Source of the DNA: a virus
Taxonomy: Duplodnaviria > Heunggongvirae > Uroviricota > Caudoviricetes
DNA: 27,000 nt
Strand: one strand, 5' to 3'
IMG/VR virus record: IMGVR_UViG_640753024_000008
Part shown: piece after piece, positions 3,309 to 27,000 of the stretch
Position numbering within the stretch: the first letter of the stretch is position 1
How the letters are laid out: the number at the start of each line of letters is the position of its first letter
Position numbers and translations under genes: made by a program
Notes under the pieces: model-generated
What the model saw: only the letters and a program-made list of their open reading frames with translations
The model's database searches: none
Told to the model about the DNA's origin: nothing

Positions 3309-3884
3309 CTACGGCAGTGCTGGCCATTCAATATCCTGTGCAGTTGACGTATCAACACGGTTCAGCAATACCCGATACTTTTTCCATGCTTCCAGCAACG
3401 AGATTTCTTCCTCCGTTGCAATTTCCAGATCTGCAGCATCCTGAAGCGGCGCAATATGCTCACTGGCTACCTGCATCAGGCTGTTTTTTGTTTCTTCCGC
3501 CTCCCGGATCCGGAACAGTTTTTCTGCTTCCGTATCCTTCACCCAGGCTGTGCCGTTCCACTTCTGATATTCCCCTCCCGGCGATAACCAGGTAACATTT
3601 TCCGGTAACGGACCGAGTTCAGAAATAAATAACGCGTCGCCGGAAGCCACGTCATAAACCGTTTTACCCCGATGATCTTCAACGAGATGCCACGATGCCT
3701 CATCACTGTTGAAAACAGCCACGAAGCCTGCCGGAATATCTGGCGGTGCAATATCGATACTGTTTGCTGGCAGACCTGTATGAGGCGGAATATATGCGTC
3801 ACCTTCACCAATAAATTCATTAGTTCCGGCCAGCAGATTATAAATTTTTATGGTCCGTGGTTGTTCACTCATTCTGAATGCCAT
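3309..3884 (-). CDS. tfaQ: tail fibre assembly protein
   Basis: 191-aa ORF immediately downstream of, and translationally coupled (TAATG) to, the side-tail-fibre C-terminal ORF; typical Tfa size and position. Confidence 0.8.
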
Positions 3885-4600
3885 TATGCAAGCCTCACAA
3901 TATAGTTAAATGCGATGTTTTTGACGGTGTTTTCCGCGTTACCAGCAGCGTTAACGGTGATGGTATGTCCATGTGAACCAATCGCAACGGAGTGCGTATG
4001 AGCACCAATACCGACAGTATGTGCGTGTGCACCTGCGCTTGCAGCAGTACCCGATACAGAGTGCGTATGAGCGCCTGCAGAAGAAGTGTTAACACTGTAT
4101 TTAGAATAATCCGACGACGACATAATGTTGACCGAGGGCCAACCAATTTTAAGGAACGAGCCATCCCTGAACGTCTTATCATGGACATTATTGTCGTTAC
4201 GACGTGGACTCATTCTTTTCTTTACCGCCGCACTGCTTCTAAACGTTCTGTCGAGGCGCTTTTTAGAATGCTCGCGGGCCTTATCTTCGGTCATCTGCAC
4301 AACGAGCATGTCCGAAGGATCGCAAACGATGGTATAGACAATCCATCCATCGATCAGACCAATGGTCTTCCCTGTTCGCGCAGGACCAACAAAAATCACC
4401 GCATCGTATTCACGCGATGCCAGGCAGTTCATGGGCTCAATGATGTAGGGTGTCAGTTCAGGATCCCATGGCACCGAGTTACCAGCCCCCTTGGGAACAC
4501 GCATGAATTTTTTAACAGCCTCCGAAATCGGCATGCGACGTGGTGGGGAAAATCCTGCCGATATGTCCCTTCCCAAATTTCGGGCTGATGAAAAACCCAT
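3884..4600 (-). pseudogene. chimeric ORF: terminase large subunit N-terminal fragment fused in frame to a side-tail-fibre C-terminus
   Basis: N-terminal 150 or so residues resemble the GpA-type terminase N-terminus ([15 protein letters not shown]..., P-loop-like GPARTGKT). The C-terminal 70 or so residues are a repetitive Gly/His/Thr-rich tail-fibre tip (SAGAHTHSV...GSHGHTITV). The head and tail genes that should lie between are absent. Confidence 0.6.
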
Positions 4601-4608
4601 TATTCCTC

Positions 4609-4864
4609 CTAGAGACTCTCTCCTTCCTCATCAGGAATTAATTCAGCAGCACAAGCCTCGTAGGATTTTTCCTGAAGAGTGTATCGCAGGTCATCAATTG
4701 CCTGCTGTACAACGCCGACGGCCTGAGGAGTCAGGGCGCAATCGCGTTCAAGAACATCCGGAATTGTCTCCAGAACCTGGACGACAGCCTTTCTCATGGA
4801 CGAATAGACGATGACTACTTCATCAACGGGGATGAGTTTTCGCTGCTCCTTTTCCAGCTTGATC
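4609..4864 (-). pseudogene. terminase small subunit-like remnant, 5' end removed by the IS66 insertion
   Basis: The reading frame of ORF 4609..4797 stays open upstream right up to the IS66 terminal repeat at about 4865. Sits directly upstream of the terminase large-subunit fragment. Family assignment is by position only. Confidence 0.35.
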
Positions 4865-4894
4865 GTAAGCGACTCGTCAGAACCGTATTGATAT

Positions 4895-6466
4895 TTACTG
4901 AGAGCTCAGATCAACTTTCCAGGGCAACAGATCGCGTACCCGGTTTGCCGGCCAGTCCTGGATATGTTCAATGACGTAACGCAGCCACTTTTCTGACTCC
5001 ACATTGTTCAGACGGCATGTGCCGATCAGCGAGTACAACACCGCCGCATGTTCACCACCGCTGTCGGAACCCGCGAACATCCAGTTTTTCCGGCCTACGG
5101 CCACTCCCCGTAAGGCGTTCTCTGCGATGTTGTTGTCGATTTCCACCCAGCCATTACTGCAGTACACGTTCAGTGCATCCCACTGTTTCAGCAGGTATGC
5201 GAACGCTTTTGCCGTATCTGAGTGACGCGACAGTGTTTTCATCTGTTGCTGTATCCAGTCATACAGTGACTGCATCAGTGGCGCGGCTCTGGCTTTTCTT
5301 GCCGCCAGACGCTGTTCTGCTGAACAGCCCCGGACCTCTGCCTCGATGGCATACAGTTCACCGATACGCTGCAGGGCTTCCGTGGTGATGTAGGTGGGCG
5401 CTCTTGCATGCACATCGTGGATTTTTCTCCGGACATGAGCCATACACGCGGCTTCCGTTATTCTGCCGGATTCGTATAACGCCCGGTAACCACCGTAAGC
5501 ATCGGCCTGAAGCACACCGCTGTAACCGGCCAGGTGATTTTGTGGATGGATACCTTTCCGGTCCGGACTGTACGCGAACCAGACCGCCGGGGGCATCTGT
5601 GAACCGGCGTTACGGTCATCACGGACGTAGACCCACAGCCGGGCTGTCCGGGTTTTACCGCTGCCCGGCTCCTGGACCGGGACGGGGATATCATCAGCAT
5701 GGACTTTACCGGGCATCAGCACATACTGGCGCAGGACGTCATACAGCGGCTCCAGCAGTTCAGCAACAGCACCTGTCCAGCGCCCCAGTGTGGCACGGCT
5801 CAGCTCCACTCCCTGACGACGGTATATTTCTGACTGGCGGTATAACGGCAGATGGTCTGCATATTTCCCGGTGACAACATGGGCCAGAAGCCCCGCTCCG
5901 GCATAACTGCGTGCAATGGGTTTTGAAGGTACTGGTGCCTGCACGATATGGTCGCACCGGCAACAGGCCTGTTTCGGACGTTGTGTTTCGATAACCTTAA
6001 AGGCGCTGCTGATAAGCTCCAGTTGCTCTGACACATCACATCCCAGAGAACTGAGTTCACCACCACAGGCAGGACAGCATTCCTCTTCCGGCCGGATAAC
6101 CCGGGTTTCACGGGGAAGTGAGGCCGGTAACGGTTTACGGGCTGAAGACTGGCGCAGGGCGGATGGCAGTACCGGGTCATATTGCTCACCCAGCGTTTCC
6201 GCCATTTCTTCCTGAAGTGCGCTGATTCGCTCCTGTGCTTCCTGTATCTGCCGTTCGGTTTTTGCACGAAGTTTTTCTGAGCTTTTACCGAACTGCATAC
6301 GTTGCAGTTTCGCAACCAGCGCCTTCAGCCGGTTGATTTCGGAAGCATAAGCCGCCACCCGCTGTGAGAGCAGGCGGTTGTATTCAGCCATCTGGCGTAT
6401 GGTGTCCTGTTGCGTCTGCAACAGTGCCCGCAGGCGGGCGTTCTCATGAGCAAGTGAGGTGTCCAT
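4895..6466 (-). CDS. IS66-family transposase TnpC
   Basis: 523 aa with an N-terminal coiled-coil/leucine-zipper region, a Cys-rich zinc-ribbon (CPACG...CRCDH) and the conserved IS66 TnpC core. Confidence 0.9.
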
Positions 6467-6485
6467 ATCCTCACTTTACAACGGG

Positions 6486-6833
6486 TTATATGCGGATTCC
6501 AGCGCGTTCCGTTCGTTTCGGGTGCTTCCAGTTGATACCTTCAAGAAGCATGGATAACTGAGCCGGAGTAAGGTGCACCTTGCCGTCACGGGTGACTGGC
6601 CAGACGAAGCGGCCCCGCTCCAGGCGTTTGGTGAAGAGGCACAGTCCGTCACTGTCAGCCCACAACACTTTTATCTGGTCACCCCGGCGTCCGCGGAAGA
6701 TGAACAGGTGTCCGGAGAACGGGTCATCCTTCAGGACGTTCTGAACTTTTGATGCCAGGCCGTTAAAGCCATTTCGCATATCGGTGATACCTGCAACCAG
6801 CCAGATACGCGAACCTGCAGGGAGAGATATCAT
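6486..6833 (-). CDS. IS66 accessory protein TnpB (orfB)
   Basis: 115 aa, [20 protein letters not shown]... motif typical of IS66 orfB; overlaps orfA by 1 nt. Confidence 0.9.
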   Translation of the reverse strand: MISLPAGSRIWLVAGITDMRNGFNGLASKVQNVLKDDPFSGHLFIFRGRRGDQIKVLWADSDGLCLFTKRLERGRFVWPVTRDGKVHLTPAQLSMLLEGINWKHPKRTERAGIRI

Positions 6834-7297
6834 CAGTGGCTGCTCCCTTTTATTTCGCGGATAAGTGTCTGTAATAACGCCGGCGTCAGTTTACCTTTAA
6901 GCCTGAGAGTTCCGGCCGGCAGAACCAGCTCACAACACAGACTGTCGGACGGTGTATTTATCTGCTCTGGTTCCTGTGCGGGGGCCGGGATTTTATTATC
7001 CGGCTCCGGCGTTAACGTCACGGGAAGCAGTGCCGGCATATTTTTTCCGGAAGGCAGCAGGCCACCTTTCCGGTATTGATGGCGCCAGTTGAAGAGCAGG
7101 TTATCGTTGATTCCGTTTTCCCGGGCGATCTGCGCCACACAGGCTCCGGGCTGCAGTGACTGCTCCACTAAGGCGATTTTAAACTCATAAGGGAAGTTGG
7201 GCCGCCGGGGACGTTTTTTTACCACGGGGGCTTCGGATATAACGGTGCTTTCAGGACGTACGACTGGTATCGTGGAAAATTGGTAAGCGTGCAGCAA
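6833..7297 (-). CDS. IS66 orfA (true start unresolved)
   Basis: Homologous to copy-2 orfA (PEFK...GINDNLLFNWR). The called start is a TTG that lies inside the terminal repeat of the neighbouring element, so the real start is further downstream. Confidence 0.6.
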   Translation of the reverse strand: MLHAYQFSTIPVVRPESTVISEAPVVKKRPRRPNFPYEFKIALVEQSLQPGACVAQIARENGINDNLLFNWRHQYRKGGLLPSGKNMPALLPVTLTPEPDNKIPAPAQEPEQINTPSDSLCCELVLPAGTLRLKGKLTPALLQTLIREIKGSSH

Positions 7298-7319
7298 GAA
7301 CCGTATTGACGGGGATGTG

Positions 7320-8858
7320 TTATTCAGTCGGCAGTGCTACGCGCCAGGGGAGCAGTTCGCCGACCCGGTTTATCGGCCAGTCGGCTATGACGTCAAGGAC
7401 ATAGCGGAGGTAGCTTTCTGGCTCCACTCCGTTCAGTTTGCACGTCCCGATCAGGCTGTACAGCAGCGCTCCCCGCTCTCCTCCATGATCCGAACCGAAG
7501 AACAGGTAGTTTTTGCGGCCCAGACTGACCATCCGCAACGCATTTTCAGCGATGTTATTGTCCGCCTCAGCCCAGCCATCATCTGCATAGTACGTCAGCG
7601 CCGGCCACTGGTTCAGGGCGTATGCGAACGCTTTCGCCAGTTCTGAGTGTCGCGACAGGGTTTTCATCTTTTCACGCAACCAGCTTTCCAGGGATTTCAA
7701 CAGCGGTTTCGTTTTTCGCTGACGTTCAGCAAGCCGCTGCTCTGCCGGCATTCCCCTTATATCCGCCTCTATGGCGTACAACTGACCGATCTGCTCCAGG
7801 GCTTCTTCCGTCAGTGCTGACGGGATGCGGACGTGCACATCGTGGATCTTTCGGCGGGCATGAGCCCAGCAGGCAGCTTCCGTTATCCCACCATTGCGAT
7901 ACAGCTCGTTGAACCCGGCGTACGCATCCGCTTGCAGCACACCGCTGAAGCAGGCAAGATGAGTCTGCGGATGGATGCCTTTTCTGTCCGGGCTGTAAGC
8001 GAACCACACTGCAGGTGCCAACGCTGACCCGGCATTGCGGTCATCACGAACATACGCCCACAACCGCCCGGTCTTCGTCTTCTTATTACCCGGCAGCAGT
8101 ACCTGGACCGGGGTATCATCGGCATGGAGTTTGCCGTCAGTCATGACATAGCCATGAAGCGCCTCTTCCAGCGGAGACAGCAGCCGGCAGCATGCATCCA
8201 CCCAGCCCGACAGCAGTGAACGGCTCAGCTCCACACCTTGCCGGCCGTATATTTCTGACTGGCGATACAGCGGGGTGTGCTCTGCATACTTCGAGGTCAG
8301 CACGCGGGCCAGCAGCCCCGGTCCGGCGATACCCCGCTCGATGGGCCGCGAAGGTGCAGGTGCCTGCACGATGGCATCGCACTGAGTACAGGCATGTTTT
8401 TCCCGTACCGTCCGGATAACCCGGAAGGCACTACGCATCAACTCCAGCTGTTCGGCGGTATCCTCGCCCAGATAGCTCAGTGAACCGCCGCAGTTCGGGC
8501 AGCACGGCGCCGCAGGCAACAGTCGCTTTTCGTCACGGGGTAGTGATTCAGGGAACGGCTTACGGGTGCGGGTCTGACGCAACGGACGCTGTACAGCCGG
8601 GTCATACACCCTACCAGTCAGCGTATCGCTCTCTTTCTGAAGCCGGTTCAGATCGGCTTCCATTTGTGCGATACGGCGGGAGACTTTTTCGGAACGACTG
8701 CCGAAGTTCATCCGGCGGAGTTTATCCAGCTGCGCCTGCAGATGGTCTATTTCGCGCTCCCAGTTGCTCAGCTTTTCCTGCAGGGCGTGGATCAGCGCTT
8801 CCTGTTCGGCCAGGCGCTGTTTCAGCAGGAAGATGTCGTCAGAAGAGATGTCGTTCAT
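7320..8858 (-). CDS. IS66-family transposase TnpC
   Basis: 512 aa, same architecture as copy 1 but clearly divergent in sequence. Confidence 0.9.
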
Positions 8859-8907
8859 AAGCCCGTATTTTACCGGGCTTATTCTGTGACAACCAGGATA
8901 AAGAGAT

Positions 8908-9255
8908 TTACAGCATGGTCAGGGAGGTCAGCAACCGCTTGGGCTGTCGCCAGTCGATACCTTCCAGCAGCATCGCCAGCTGCGCCTGCGTAAGGAACAC
9001 TTTGCCATCACGGGCTGACGGCCAGGCGAAGCGCCCACGCTCCAGCCGTTTGGTCAGGAGGCACAGTCCGTCACCGGTGGACCACAGCAGTTTAACCTGA
9101 CTGCCGCTGCGGCCCCGGAAAATGAAAACATGGCCGGACATGGGATCGTCTTTCAGCGCCGTTTGTACTTTCGCAGCCAGGCCGTTGAAGCCATTTCTCA
9201 TATCGGTGATACCGGCAACCAGCCAAATTTTGGTCCCGGAAGGTAACGGGATCAT
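8908..9255 (-). CDS. IS66 accessory protein TnpB (orfB)
   Basis: 115 aa, [20 protein letters not shown]... Confidence 0.9.
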
Positions 9256-9653
9256 CGCTTCAGTTCCTGTATCAGCAGAGTCAGGAGCTTTTCGCTGACA
9301 TTGCCATTGAAGCGGAGCGTCCCGTGCCGGAACGTTACCTCACAGCTGATACTGAGGGTTTCCGGGTCCTCTGCGAGCGATTCTGGCTGTTCGGCAGCTG
9401 CATCGAGAGTCACAGGAAGTAGCTGGGGGCTCTCTGAAGAAGGTAATAGCAGCTTTCCCTCGCGCCATTGTTGTCGCCATTTGAACAACAGATTGGCGTT
9501 AATGCCATTTTCAAGAGCAAGTTTTGAGATGGATATCCCGGGTTCACAGGAGGCAGCAACGAGCTGCTGTTTAAATTCGGGAGGATAATTAGGGCAGCCT
9601 TTTCGCCTGCCGGGAGTCACATTTTTCTGCATATCTGACACTTTGGTTCCCAC
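9252..9653 (-). CDS. IS66 orfA
   Basis: 133 aa, overlaps orfB by 4 nt; helix-turn-helix-like GINANLLFKWR motif. Confidence 0.8.
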   Translation of the reverse strand: MGTKVSDMQKNVTPGRRKGCPNYPPEFKQQLVAASCEPGISISKLALENGINANLLFKWRQQWREGKLLLPSSESPQLLPVTLDAAAEQPESLAEDPETLSISCEVTFRHGTLRFNGNVSEKLLTLLIQELKR

Positions 9654-9679
9654 TACTTATTTGGTGGACACCACTTTGT

Positions 9680-9922
9680 CTAATTTGTCAGATTCTGACC
9701 AGACGGTTCAGGCTGTACGCTTACCTTACGCCTGTCTTCTTTAATCTTGAAATAAAGATTTGTCAGATACGTCAGCAGGCCAAAAACCAGGCTACCCAGC
9801 ACACCGATTGCAGCCCACTGTGACGGAGTTACTTTATCGAGTAACTGCAATGCCCAGAAACCAGCATTACCCGCCGATGTGCCATAGGCAACACCTGTTG
9901 TTAACTTATCCATTGATTTCAT
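9680..9922 (-). CDS. essQ: phage-21-type class II holin with dual-start motif; native C-terminus replaced by IS66-derived codons
   Basis: [31 protein letters not shown]...[16 protein letters not shown] matches the S21 holin family (recalled). GGTGAGGAT ribosome-binding site before the first Met. The last native codon, Lys, ends exactly at the IS66 copy-2 boundary at 9724/9725. Confidence 0.75.
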
Positions 9923-11201: not shown

Positions 11202-11392
11202 ATGACAGGACCTGTCAAAAACTTTGACTACAAAAGCAGCAAAGGTCTTATATTCCCATCCGATGGCGTATCGATGCCCAGCTTCACGTTTCAGCTCTCA
11301 ATCTTCGAGATGCAGAAGAAATTACCACAGGATTACGCGTGGAATTTTGCCGGATAAATGGTTCGCGTGGACCTTCAACTGCCAATGTTTAT
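11202..11392 (+). pseudogene. cspF-like cold-shock gene with a 1-nt frameshift and read-through of the expected stop
   Basis: [22 protein letters not shown] in one frame from the ATG at 11202. The homologous continuation ([38 protein letters not shown]) is in a different frame starting around 11265, and no stop follows ANVY. Confidence 0.5.
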
Positions 11393-11435
11393 CCCGGGAT
11401 GAGATTCAATATCTCTATTGCCCCATTTAAAGCAC

Positions 11436-16806: not shown

Positions 16807-17432
16807 CCTTTGCGCTCCTGAACATGTAACAAAATATGATTCGCATTATAAGATTTTTTAATGTTTAGCCGAAGAGTTTTTTGCATGAGTTATGACATAA
16901 GTTTAGTTCGTAGTTCTGCGATATAGTTTTCTCCTGAAAACAAAAAACATCTGGGGCATGAGGTGAGCTCCGAAAGTTGGACATCTCAACGATTATGTCA
17001 AGAGCGTCTACTGGGACGTGGTCTGTGTAAACGGTCACTCCTAGTACAAAGCAGACAACAATGCCAGTTTTAATCTAATCCTATACAACAGAAATGTCAT
17101 TTCACATTTGAACTAATGCACTTTAATATCGTTACTTCAAAATGCTGAACATTTCCCTGATAAAACGCCAGTATGCGTTGCATCACTTCGCTCTTCCGGC
17201 ACTCGCGACAGATTATGTTTAGACGACTGTCGTAGCGACGTATTTCTCCGTCAGGTAATGACCAGATAAGGTCCGGATCAACCACAGCAGGTTTCTTCAC
17301 CTTTGCCCTCGAGAGTTTTTTGCGGGCGTTTTGCCAGTCCTTACGCGCCTGTTCAGACGGGAATAACTGATCTTACCCAGCAATAGTGGACACGCGGCTA
17401 AGTGAGTAAACTCTCAGTCAGAGGTGACTCAC

Positions 17433-17732
17433 ATGACAAAAACAGTATCAACCAGTAAAAAACCCCGTAAACAGCATTCGCCTGAATTTCGCAGTGAAGC
17501 CCTGAAGCTTGCTGAACGCATCGGTGTTACTGCCGCAGCCCGTGAACTCAGCCTGTATGAATCACAACTCTACAACTGGCGCAGTAAACAGCAAAATCAG
17601 CAGACGTCTTCTGAACGTGAACTGGAGATGTCTACCGAGATTGCACGTCTCAAACGCCAGCTGGCAGAACGGGATGAAGAGCTGGCTATCCTCCAAAAGG
17701 CCGCGACATACTTCGCGAAGCGCCTGAAATGA
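17433..17732 (+). CDS. insE: IS3 OrfA (helix-turn-helix protein)
   Basis: [32 protein letters not shown]... recalled IS3 InsE sequence; the ORF track begins 3 codons earlier at a GTG. Confidence 0.9.
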
Positions 17733-18505
17733 AGTACGTCTTTATTGAAAAACATCAGGCTGAGTTCAGCATCAAAGCAATGTGCCGCGTGCTCCGGGTG
17801 GCCCGCAGCGGCTGGTATACGTGGTGTCAGCGGCGGACAAGGATAAGCACGCGTCAGCAGTTCCGCCAACACTGCGACAGCGTTGTCCTCGCGGCTTTTA
17901 CCCGGTCAAAACAGCGTTACGGTGCCCCACGCCTGACGGATGAACTGCGTGATCAGGGTTACCCCTTTAACGTAAAAACCGTGGCGGCAAGCCTGCGCCG
18001 TCAGGGACTGAGGGCAAAGGCCTCCCGGAAGTTCAGCCCGGTCAGCTACCGCGCACACGGCCTGCCTGTGTCAGAAAATCTGTTGGAGCAGGATTTTTAC
18101 GCCAGTGGCCCGAACCAGAAGTGGGCAGGAGACATCACGTACTTACGTACAGATGAAGGCTGGCTGTATCTGGCAGTGGTCATTGACCTGTGGTCACGTG
18201 CCGTTATTGGCTGGTCAATGTCGCCACGCATGACGGCGCAACTGGCCTGCGATGCCCTGCAGATGGCGCTGTGGCGGCGTAAGAGGCCCCGGAACGTTAT
18301 CGTTCACACGGACCGTGGAGGCCAGTACTGTTCAGCAGATTATCAGGCGCAACTGAAGCGGCATAATCTGCGTGGAAGTATGAGCGCAAAAGGTTGCTGC
18401 TACGATAATGCCTGCGTGGAAAGCTTCTTTCATTCGCTGAAAGTGGAATGTATCCATGGAGAACACTTTATCAGCCGGGAAATAATGCGGGCAACGGTGT
18501 TTTAA
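17729..18505 (+). CDS. insF: IS3 OrfB (DDE transposase), C-terminally truncated by a frameshift
   Basis: 258 aa ending ...REIMRATVF. The expected last 30 or so residues ([30 protein letters not shown]) are in the +1 frame after a run of four T at about 18500..18503. Confidence 0.85.
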
Positions 18506-18855
18506 TTATATCGAATGTGATTACAATCGGTGGCGGCGGCACAGTTGGTGTGGCGGCCTCAGTCCGGAACAATTTGAAAACCAGAACCTCGCTTAGGCCT
18601 GTGTCCATATTACGTGGGTAGGATCATAACCCGTAACCAGAGCTGTATACATCGCCACTGGCAACCAGCTCTCTGGCCAGAACGCTCATCAGATATCTTG
18701 TTGCCCCAGTTTTAGCTTCCAGTTGTCGTAACGTCTCGCGCCCACTCTGGCGTACGAGTTCCACCACCTGCCCTTTAATTTTTTCCCGCTCTTCTTGTGT
18801 AAAAACTTTTGCCACAAGTCCTCCTGAACATTACTTTATGCCCTAAAATCAACAC

Positions 18856-25719: not shown

Positions 25720-27000
25720 ATGAAATATCCGACAGGCGTGGAAAACCATGGAGGGAAATTACGTATCTGGTTTGTTTATAAAGGCGTAAGAGTCAGGGAA
25801 AACCTGGGGGTTCCTGACACAGCAAAAAACAGGCGCGTTGCAGGTGAGCTACGCGCCTCTGTTTGTTACGCAATAAAAACTGGTGTTTTCGACTATGCAA
25901 AACAGTTTCCCTCCTCACGCAATCTGGAAAAATTTGGTGAGGCCCGACAAGATTTAACCATAAAAGAACTGGCTGAAAAATTTCTGGCACTGAAAGAAAC
26001 TGAAGTCGCAAAAACATCACTCAACACATACCGTGCCGTCATCAAAAATATCCTGAGCATAATCGGTGAAAAAAATCTTGCCTCATCGATTAATAAAGAA
26101 AAATTACTGGAGGTTCGTAAAGAGCTACTGACTGGATACCAGATCCCCAAAAGTAACTATATTGTTACACAACCAGGGAGATCGGCTGTAACTGTAAATA
26201 ATTACATGACAAATCTTAACGCCGTGTTCCAGTTTGGTGTTGATAACGGTTACCTGGCAGATAACCCGTTTAAGGGGATCTCGCCATTAAAGGAATCAAG
26301 AACCATTCCGGATCCTCTTTCGCGGGAGGAATTTATCCGTCTTATCGATGCGTGCAGAAATCAGCAAGCAAAAAATTTATGGTGTGTTTCTGTTTATACT
26401 GGCGTTCGCCCTGGTGAGCTGTGTGCACTTGGATGGGAGGACATAGATCTGAAAAATGGAACAATGATGATCAGGAGAAATTTAGCAAAAGATCGTTTCA
26501 CGGTACCAAAAACACAGGCGGGAACCAATCGGGTCATTCATCTTATTAAGCCAGCAATCGACGCTCTCCGGAGTCAGATGACATTAACGAGACTGAGCAA
26601 AGAGCATATCATTGATGTTCACCTCAGAGAGTATGGCAGAACAGAAAAACAAAAATGCACCTTTGTTTTTCAACCTGAAGTGTCAGCGAGAGTAAAAAAT
26701 TATGGTGACCATTTTACCGTTGACTCAATAAGGCAGATGTGGGACGCAGCGATAAAACGTGCCGGACTCCGCCATCGAAAATCATATCAGTCGAGACATA
26801 CTTATGCCTGCTGGTCGCTGACAGCTGGTGCTAACCCGGCATTTATAGCAAACCAGATGGGCCATGCAGATGCGCAAATGGTATTTAAGGTATACGGAAA
26901 ATGGATGTCTGAAAACAATAATGCACAGGTAGCTTTGTTAAATACACAGTTAAGCGAGTTTGCCCCAACCATGCCCCATAACGAAGCAATGAAAAATTAA
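25720..27000 (+). CDS. intQ: tyrosine integrase (phage integrase family), apparently full length
   Basis: ORF track 25705..27000; the ATG at 25720 has a GAGAAG ribosome-binding site. C-terminal catalytic region with R...HxxR...Y context (RHRKSYQSRHTYACW...HADAQMVFKVY). Stop at 26998..27000. Confidence 0.85.
   Translation: MKYPTGVENHGGKLRIWFVYKGVRVRENLGVPDTAKNRRVAGELRASVCYAIKTGVFDYAKQFPSSRNLEKFGEARQDLTIKELAEKFLALKETEVAKTSLNTYRAVIKNILSIIGEKNLASSINKEKLLEVRKELLTGYQIPKSNYIVTQPGRSAVTVNNYMTNLNAVFQFGVDNGYLADNPFKGISPLKESRTIPDPLSREEFIRLIDACRNQQAKNLWCVSVYTGVRPGELCALGWEDIDLKNGTMMIRRNLAKDRFTVPKTQAGTNRVIHLIKPAIDALRSQMTLTRLSKEHIIDVHLREYGRTEKQKCTFVFQPEVSARVKNYGDHFTVDSIRQMWDAAIKRAGLRHRKSYQSRHTYACWSLTAGANPAFIANQMGHADAQMVFKVYGKWMSENNNAQVALLNTQLSEFAPTMPHNEAMKN

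Follow-up and report, generated by a model that had tools for sequence, protein, structure and literature searches.

A truncated ISCro1 and a complete ISEc8-type element in tandem at a deletion in the Qin-type prophage of Escherichia coli E24377A

Members of the IS66 family of insertion sequences (IS) are recognized by three consecutive genes, tnpA (helix-turn-helix), tnpB (IS66 Orf2) and tnpC (DDE transposase containing zinc-finger and leucine-zipper regions), by inverted repeats of about 20–30 bp starting GTAA(G/C)CG at both ends, and by an 8-bp direct target-site duplication. One of them, ISEc8, is 2442 bp long and was first described in Escherichia coli O157:H7. Another, ISCro1, was named from Citrobacter rodentium ICC168, which holds 24 copies (PMC3072379). 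On the pAt plasmid of Agrobacterium, the 270 kb lying between two directly oriented IS66 copies were deleted, and a single copy remained "with distinct flanking duplications"; both parental copies were observed and genetically shown to be required, and the authors invoke homologous recombination (PMC6778807). Here we describe a truncated ISCro1 followed by a complete ISEc8-type element in a 27,000-nucleotide stretch of viral DNA (IMG/VR record IMGVR_UViG_640753024_000008), the whole of which is called the window. As on pAt, one IS copy stays, its flanks do not match and the intervening DNA is gone, whereas the deletion is only about 5 kb and the two-copy parental state is one that we infer.

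The window was found to be 100% identical to the chromosome of the enterotoxigenic E. coli (ETEC) strain E24377A (CP000800.1), window position x corresponding to position 1751715 + x. The genome of this strain has been in print since 2008. The window prophage is a Qin-type cryptic prophage adjoining ydfJ. It shares with Qin the chromosomal site, by ydfJ, ydfK, pinQ and tfaQ, and carries cspB, ynfU, a Q-type antiterminator gene, hokD and dicB; its relatives ML775, FT130 and 08-00022 have the IS-free late region essD-ydfR-rrrQ-rzpQ-cspI-gnsB. It differs from Qin in a packaging module of the phage cdtI/Tritos type, with a DUF1441 small terminase, and in a late region that has been swapped for the two IS elements from essD to the small-terminase gene. 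Our structural reconstruction of the IS66 pair and the associated deletion is very probably correct. The whole history that we favor, in which a Qin-type prophage decayed through an ISCro1 insertion and then an ISEc8-anchored deletion by recombination between two ISEc8 copies, is given a probability of about 0.5.

Both units have the order tnpA-tnpB-tnpC on the minus strand and lie head-to-tail (Table 1), the tnpA of the first unit being truncated at its 5' end. All six open reading frames (ORFs) matched IS66-family Pfam domains above the gathering scores. With only 57% identity between their TnpC proteins (523 and 512 aa), the units are two distinct IS66 members and not a duplication. The TnpB proteins share 70% identity, and the DNA likeness of the units, about 70–74%, is limited to blocks. 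The right repeats at 4865–4891 and 7283–7309 are 78% identical and have the terminal GTAAGCG and the block AGAACCGTATTGA in common.

Isoforms of an IS share at least 95% nucleotide identity with the ISfinder reference. The names used here are based on a proxy for this rule, namely identity to copies labelled by the Prokaryotic Genome Annotation Pipeline (PGAP) and not to the ISfinder references. By this measure the first unit is ISCro1, being 99.8% identical over 2418 bp to nt 282–2699 of 2699-bp copies in other genomes (L001–L007), the ends of which were set by perfect 8-bp duplications in six genomes. The PGAP label on these full-length counterparts is "IS66-like element ISCro1 family transposase". 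The window copy has tnpB, tnpC and the right repeat intact and is short by 281 bp, a segment with the left repeat GTAACCGGCTCATTTAAACCGTCTGGTC and tnpA codons 1–76 of 225 (in L003, L005 and L007 the complete gene has 678 nt). The tnpA-side repeat, starting GTAACCGGCTC or GTAACCGGCTCATTT, was seen in full ISCro1 copies and is deleted here, so that only the tnpC-side repeat is left. With an end missing and TnpA shortened by 76 residues at its N-terminus, the element cannot move on its own. It is a dead remnant, for which a target-site duplication cannot be defined because the left end is missing. A 154-aa ORF over the tnpA remnant begins at a TTG codon within the ISEc8 repeat.

The second unit was 100% identical from end to end to 2442-bp copies in other ETEC genomes (L010–L019), 99.96% identical to the copy in ETEC H10407, and 97.3% identical over 2442 bp to copies labelled by PGAP as "IS66-like element ISEc8 family" (L004 and L005). 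It has the length, the tnpA-tnpB-tnpC layout and the GTAAGCG-type repeats of ISEc8. It differs from ISEc8 as an ETEC variant that is about 2.7% diverged from the copies of enterohemorrhagic E. coli, and the PGAP name for the transposase of this variant is only "IS66 family transposase". Some matches to the repeat region carried the label ISEc22. Repeats starting GTAAGCG are present at both ends, and the repeat finder paired 7282–7304 with 9703–9725 (23 nt, 87% complementary). Judged from its sequence, this ISEc8 copy is intact and potentially mobile. The exact 512-aa TnpC is present in multiple copies in other ETEC genomes; when it was used to look for further E24377A copies with reciprocal flanks, ten places were returned, all in other genomes.

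Table 1. Positions in the window of the two IS66-family elements, their parts and the prophage genes that they interrupt
Feature	Position	Strand	Evidence
Small-terminase gene (DUF1441 family), 3' remnant, 84 codons plus stop, cut at codon ~91 by the ISCro1 end	4609..4864	-	Pfam DUF1441, profile 79-144 of 147
Truncated ISCro1, nt 282-2699 of 2699, right inverted repeat kept	4865..7282	-	Alignment to full copies
ISCro1 right (tnpC-side) inverted repeat GTAAGCGACTCGTCAGAACCGTATTGA	4865..4891	-	Repeat finder, junction alignment
ISCro1 tnpC, intact, 523-aa DDE transposase	4895..6466	-	Pfam LZ_Tnp_IS66, zf-IS66, DDE_Tnp_IS66 (E 2e-103), DDE_Tnp_IS66_C
ISCro1 tnpB, intact, 115 aa	6486..6833	-	Pfam TnpB_IS66, E 5e-40
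ISCro1 tnpA, 3' part (codons 77-225 of 225), lacking its own start codon	6833..7282	-	Pfam HTH_Tnp_1
Complete ISEc8-type element, 2442 bp, both inverted repeats, no target-site duplication	7283..9724	-	Alignment to full copies
ISEc8 right (tnpC-side) inverted repeat GTAAGCGTGCAGCAAGAACCGTATTGA, abuts ISCro1 nt 282	7283..7309	-	Repeat finder, junction alignment
ISEc8 tnpC, 512 aa	7320..8858	-	Pfam DDE_Tnp_IS66, E 5e-106, and three accessory IS66 domains
ISEc8 tnpB, 115 aa	8908..9255	-	Pfam TnpB_IS66, E 1e-38
ISEc8 tnpA, 133 aa from GTG (126-129 aa in calls elsewhere)	9252..9653	-	Pfam HTH_Tnp_1
ISEc8 left (tnpA-side) inverted repeat GTAAGCGTACAGCCTGAACCGTCTGGT, abuts the holin gene	9698..9724	-	Repeat finder, junction alignment
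Holin gene essD (phage-21 S type), codons 1-66 of 71	9725..9922	-	Pfam Phage_holin_2_1, E 2e-33

All three junctions of the pair were located exactly at the final base of an IS terminus. At the left junction, CCAGCTTGATC from the small-terminase gene meets GTAAGCGACTCG from the ISCro1 end. At the middle junction, GTGGAAAATTG up to ISCro1 nt 282 is followed by GTAAGCGTGCAGC from the ISEc8 end, where intact ISCro1 continues TCCGTAAAGG. At the right junction, GTACGCTTAC from the other ISEc8 end meets CTTACGCCTG from essD. The outer flanks, GCTTGATC (4857–4864) and CTTACGCC (9725–9732), are not duplicates of each other. Neither are the ISEc8 flanks, GAAAATTG (7275–7282) and CTTACGCC, and GCTTGATC has no ISCro1 partner, which leaves both window elements lacking the 8-bp duplication. 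Perfect 8-bp duplications were found at eight of eight distinct full-length ISEc8-type copies from other genomes (GGCCATTA, GGGCGAAA, AATGGAAA, GTTGATCT, AAATAAAC, GAAACACT, ACGTTACC and GGCCGATT) and at six of six full-length ISCro1 copies (CGCTTACC, TTAATGCC, AACTGGTC, GGCTGAAA, TTTTATTG and CTCCAGAA). The missing duplication therefore marks a later rearrangement and does not exclude the elements from IS66; in the ISEc8 copy it is probably owed to deletion or recombination after insertion. A first-pass annotation of this DNA had proposed two different IS66-family members instead of a duplication, a first copy with a single repeat that abuts a repeat of the second, and no target-site duplication at either. 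Its coordinates, flanks and ORFs agree with the sequence and the ORF list, and these proposals stand: IS66 Pfam domains occur in both units, the break in ISCro1 falls at the first base of the ISEc8 repeat, and the re-examined flanks all mismatch.

The missing DNA was mapped by alignment to O103 strain ML775 (L005), FT130 (L020) and 08-00022 (L003). Both flanks are collinear with IS-free Qin-type prophages, with order and orientation kept. ML775 has no IS in the corresponding late region. Window 4421–4864 equals L005 9905–10348 with 100% identity, and the window from 9724 onward corresponds to L005 from 15032 onward, so that the interval missing relative to ML775 is L005 10349–15031 (4683 bp). 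It contains the first 91 DUF1441 codons, a 564-bp intergenic stretch, a hypothetical gene, a DUF1398 gene, gnsB, ynfN, ynfR, ymcF, cspI, rzpQ, rrrQ, ydfR and the last 17 nt of essD (annotated at L005 15015–15230), and thus includes the spanin and endolysin genes and the gnsB-ynfN-ymcF-cspI moron cluster. Relative to FT130, the missing interval is L020 10595–14711 (4117 bp), with the same gene set except for the DUF1398 gene. The side of the small-terminase remnant is also 100% identical to L020 9837–10594, and FT130 shares the degraded left side of the window (99.8–100%). The late region of 08-00022 matches as well, and a full ISCro1 lies 66 bp upstream of its DUF1441 gene. The small terminase annotated in phages cdtI and Tritos matches the full-length DUF1441 protein with 100% identity. 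Because its gene lies first in the cdtI and Tritos records, starting about 200 bp from the left end, cos probably lay in the lost interval.

The endpoints of the deletion thus coincide with intact IS termini, and the lost DNA is contiguous in relatives, as in an IS-mediated deletion. An IS-associated loss of lysis and packaging DNA had been postulated in the first-pass annotation, and alignment to an intact Qin-like or phage-21-like genome had been recommended there to find its endpoints; the 4.1–4.7 kb mapped above bears out the loss. Its extent has to be amended. The small-terminase gene has lost its 5' half while 84 C-terminal codons remain, and of the lysis genes the endolysin and spanin genes are gone while 66 of the 71 holin codons are still there. 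The essD frame reads into ISEc8 as far as a stop at 9680 and so encodes an 80-aa fusion. The term "adjacent deletion", also used there, is apt in that the deletion is IS-anchored; in its strict sense of intramolecular transposition, it cannot be distinguished from recombination between two ISEc8 copies.

The order of events can be read from the middle junction: an intact ISEc8 terminus lies against internal ISCro1 sequence, and ISCro1 therefore arrived first. A simple ISCro1 insertion into the small-terminase gene at 4864/4865 would have duplicated GCTTGATC. ISEc8 would then have entered the region, and one ISEc8-anchored deletion would have taken the 281-bp left end of ISCro1, the second copy of GCTTGATC and about 4.1–4.7 kb of prophage DNA, although the details of this step are conjectural. 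By the favored route, two ISEc8 copies in direct orientation, one in ISCro1 tnpA and the other close to the essD 3' end, would have undergone homologous recombination, leaving a single ISEc8 that has its left flank from one of them and its right flank from the other. Such mixed flanks explain by one event why neither element is duplicated; one deletion suffices for the missing duplications at both. There are precedents for the simple insertions. In strain 98232 (L007), ISCro1 has entered the same gene by simple insertion 89 bp away, in the same orientation and with the duplication CTCCAGAA, and a simple ISEc8 insertion within ISCro1, with the duplication GTTGATCT, is found in L014.

To our knowledge, the transposition pathway of the IS66 family has not been established and is not known to be replicative, which is one reason for favoring recombination. 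The other is that the sole documented IS66-family deletion that was found has been attributed to recombination (PMC6778807). Taken by itself, the choice of recombination over a one-step intramolecular transposition has about even odds.

In the one-step route, a single ISEc8, either in essD or in ISCro1 tnpA, would have attacked a target about 5 kb off on the same molecule. This adjacent deletion would be a replicative, Shapiro-type intramolecular transposition, in which the interval is deleted and the IS is kept. In its favor, each end of ISEc8 is preserved down to its final base and meets new DNA without a duplication, and one insertion fewer is needed than in the recombination route. Moreover, this ISEc8 type is active, with many 100% identical copies carrying fresh duplications in ETEC genomes. 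On the other side stand the unestablished pathway of the family and the literature, where no report of IS66-family adjacent deletions was found. The end product is the same as that of two-copy recombination, so that the sequence cannot decide. We consider the one-step route a real possibility, behind recombination by a small margin only. That the ISEc8 junction is a natural footprint of replicative or one-ended intramolecular transposition by an IS66-family element, acting in one step, is a shade more doubtful; in a weaker variant of this idea, the 4.86-kb hybrid with the ISEc8 left end and the ISCro1 right end may itself be mobilisable.

Several points weigh against the history with two-copy recombination. 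No intermediate was found, either as ISCro1 with GCTTGATC duplications or as a simple ISEc8 insertion in essD or at this ISCro1 site, in 5426 complete E. coli genomes, species-representative genomes, metagenomes, viral contigs and an exact-protein index. Recombination calls for three insertions and one recombination, against two insertions and one event for intramolecular transposition. The ISEc8 that survives matches other copies at 100% identity and shows no mosaic that would betray recombination. Finally, the structure is known from an assembled record, which could in principle contain a mis-join across a repeat.

The prophage of 08-00022 offers another possible starting point. Its full ISCro1 has the same orientation and lies just 338 bp from the window junction, in flanking sequence that is 99.8–100% identical throughout. 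The window structure could have descended from such a state by a 338-bp deletion next to the ISCro1 right end and a separate ISEc8-anchored deletion on the opposite side. This demands one event more than an independent insertion, and the independent same-orientation insertion into the same gene in strain 98232 makes descent from an 08-00022-like state less parsimonious. There is also no special kinship between the elements: the ISCro1 copies of L003, L005 and L007 are mutually identical and all differ from the window copy at the same 4 sites, and the window copy is closer to that of H10407. We therefore judge this descent to be improbable.

ISCro1 has struck near the small-terminase gene three times independently (window 4864/4865, L003 7538/7539 and L007 4111/4112), in one orientation and within about 430 bp of this gene in Qin-type prophages. 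The two intact insertions duplicate AACTGGTC and CTCCAGAA and come from two of the 5426 complete genomes. This region may be a mild ISCro1 hotspot, or the pattern may be due to chance.

The junctions were also sought in other records. As 300–400-bp queries, the three junctions gave no contiguous match in the 5426 complete E. coli genomes. CP000800.1 is not among these genomes, for which reason the best record covered only 84% of the region. As exact 25–27-mers, the middle junction was absent from species-representative genomes, metagenome contigs and viral contigs, the right junction from species-representative genomes and metagenome contigs, and the left junction from viral contigs, the sole contig collection queried for it. 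The products of the junction-spanning ORFs (80, 154 and 238 aa) had no exact-protein match outside CP000800.1. The multi-piece matches H31, H56, H57 and H81 are different insertions nearby. A tandem pair that seemed to recur in H10407 and other ETEC (99.9% identity, 84% query cover) was rejected as two pieces joined by the search tool; the genomes behind these matches have the two elements in reverse order, or ISCro1 lies within ISEc8 at the tib locus. As the junctions and their ORF products were seen nowhere else in these searches, there is no independent confirmation of the structure.

This last result is what an assembly artefact would predict, in which the flanks of different ISEc8 or ISCro1 copies were mis-joined and the tandem and the deletion are unreal. 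Both elements are multi-copy repeats, and a mis-join at a repeat yields exactly an intact IS with unmatched flanks. Nevertheless, CP000800.1 is a finished chromosome, and the outer flanks are neighbors within one prophage, correctly ordered and oriented and only 4–5 kb apart in relatives, as chance would rarely have it. The middle junction, moreover, is at a non-repeated internal position of ISCro1, which a collapse of identical repeats cannot create. An artefact is thus very unlikely. Transposition of the 4860-bp pair as a compound element through the ISEc8 left and ISCro1 right repeats is scarcely credible: the outer ends are a plausible IS66-type pair (22 nt, 73% complementary) and the right repeats of both elements share the motifs noted above, but a composite transposon would show one duplication around the unit and recurrence at other loci, whereas GCTTGATC and CTTACGCC differ, the internal junction occurs nowhere else in the collections searched, and insertion of a unit would not delete 4–5 kb of its target. 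An inversion was ruled out since both flanks are in the reference order and strand. Involvement of the IS-excision enhancer was set aside, the review of this enhancer being silent on IS66.

Other parts of the prophage have decayed as well. A separate, older deletion at 4107–4111, which is not IS-bounded and is partly common to FT130, took the C-terminus of the large terminase together with every head and tail gene. Here, a 238-aa ORF (3884–4600, minus strand) begins with ~165 residues from the N-terminus of the large terminase (GpA_ATPase) and ends in the C-terminus of a tail fibre; the FT130 terminase/tail remnant is the same but 424 bp longer (L020 9413–9836). The 5-bp overlap at the 4107–4111 junction suggests stepwise decay without an IS. 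A further IS insertion, a 1258-bp IS3 copy at 17368–18626, lies between an AIPR-family gene and the replication genes and is 99.7% identical to the IS3 that interrupts the FT130 holin gene. A cspF homologue at about 11202–11430 (plus strand) appears frameshifted, its first ~23 and last ~20 residues resembling CspF but in different frames. The integrase gene is whole at 25971–25978, and ML775 has an ISCro1 at exactly that point (8-bp alignment overlap). ISCro1 has therefore struck Qin-type prophages at several places in different strains.

ISCro1 and ISEc8-type elements are often nested or abutting in ETEC (L001 3001–8150, L002 3001–8150, L006 1733–5999, L012, L014 and L017). In H10407, ISCro1 lies at the very tip of ISEc8 with the duplication CGCTTACC, and in E7476 it lies within ISEc8 tnpA with the duplication TTAATGCC, at the same tib locus and with equal total length. 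In CP189652.1 (L012, L014 and L017), three ISCro1 copies begin at nt 61 and share both the flank TTGGGGCGCAGT and the neighboring IS3-family element, which suggests copying or rearrangement, to several places, of an ISCro1 that another IS had interrupted before.

Both elements are known, and what has happened here is textbook IS-mediated decay of a prophage; no new kind of element is involved. The finding has little import beyond annotation, as one more example of IS-driven prophage domestication. Two IS copies without the usual target duplications are thereby named and exactly delimited. The gene content predicts that the Qin-type prophage of E24377A can neither lyse the cell nor package DNA, and the tandem pair would account for this. 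The wider point concerns the poorly understood transposition pathway of the IS66 family, on which the terminus-anchored deletion and the nesting of ISCro1 and ISEc8 in ETEC bear. If it were true, a one-step attack by ISEc8 would show that IS66-family transposases are capable of replicative or one-ended intramolecular transposition.

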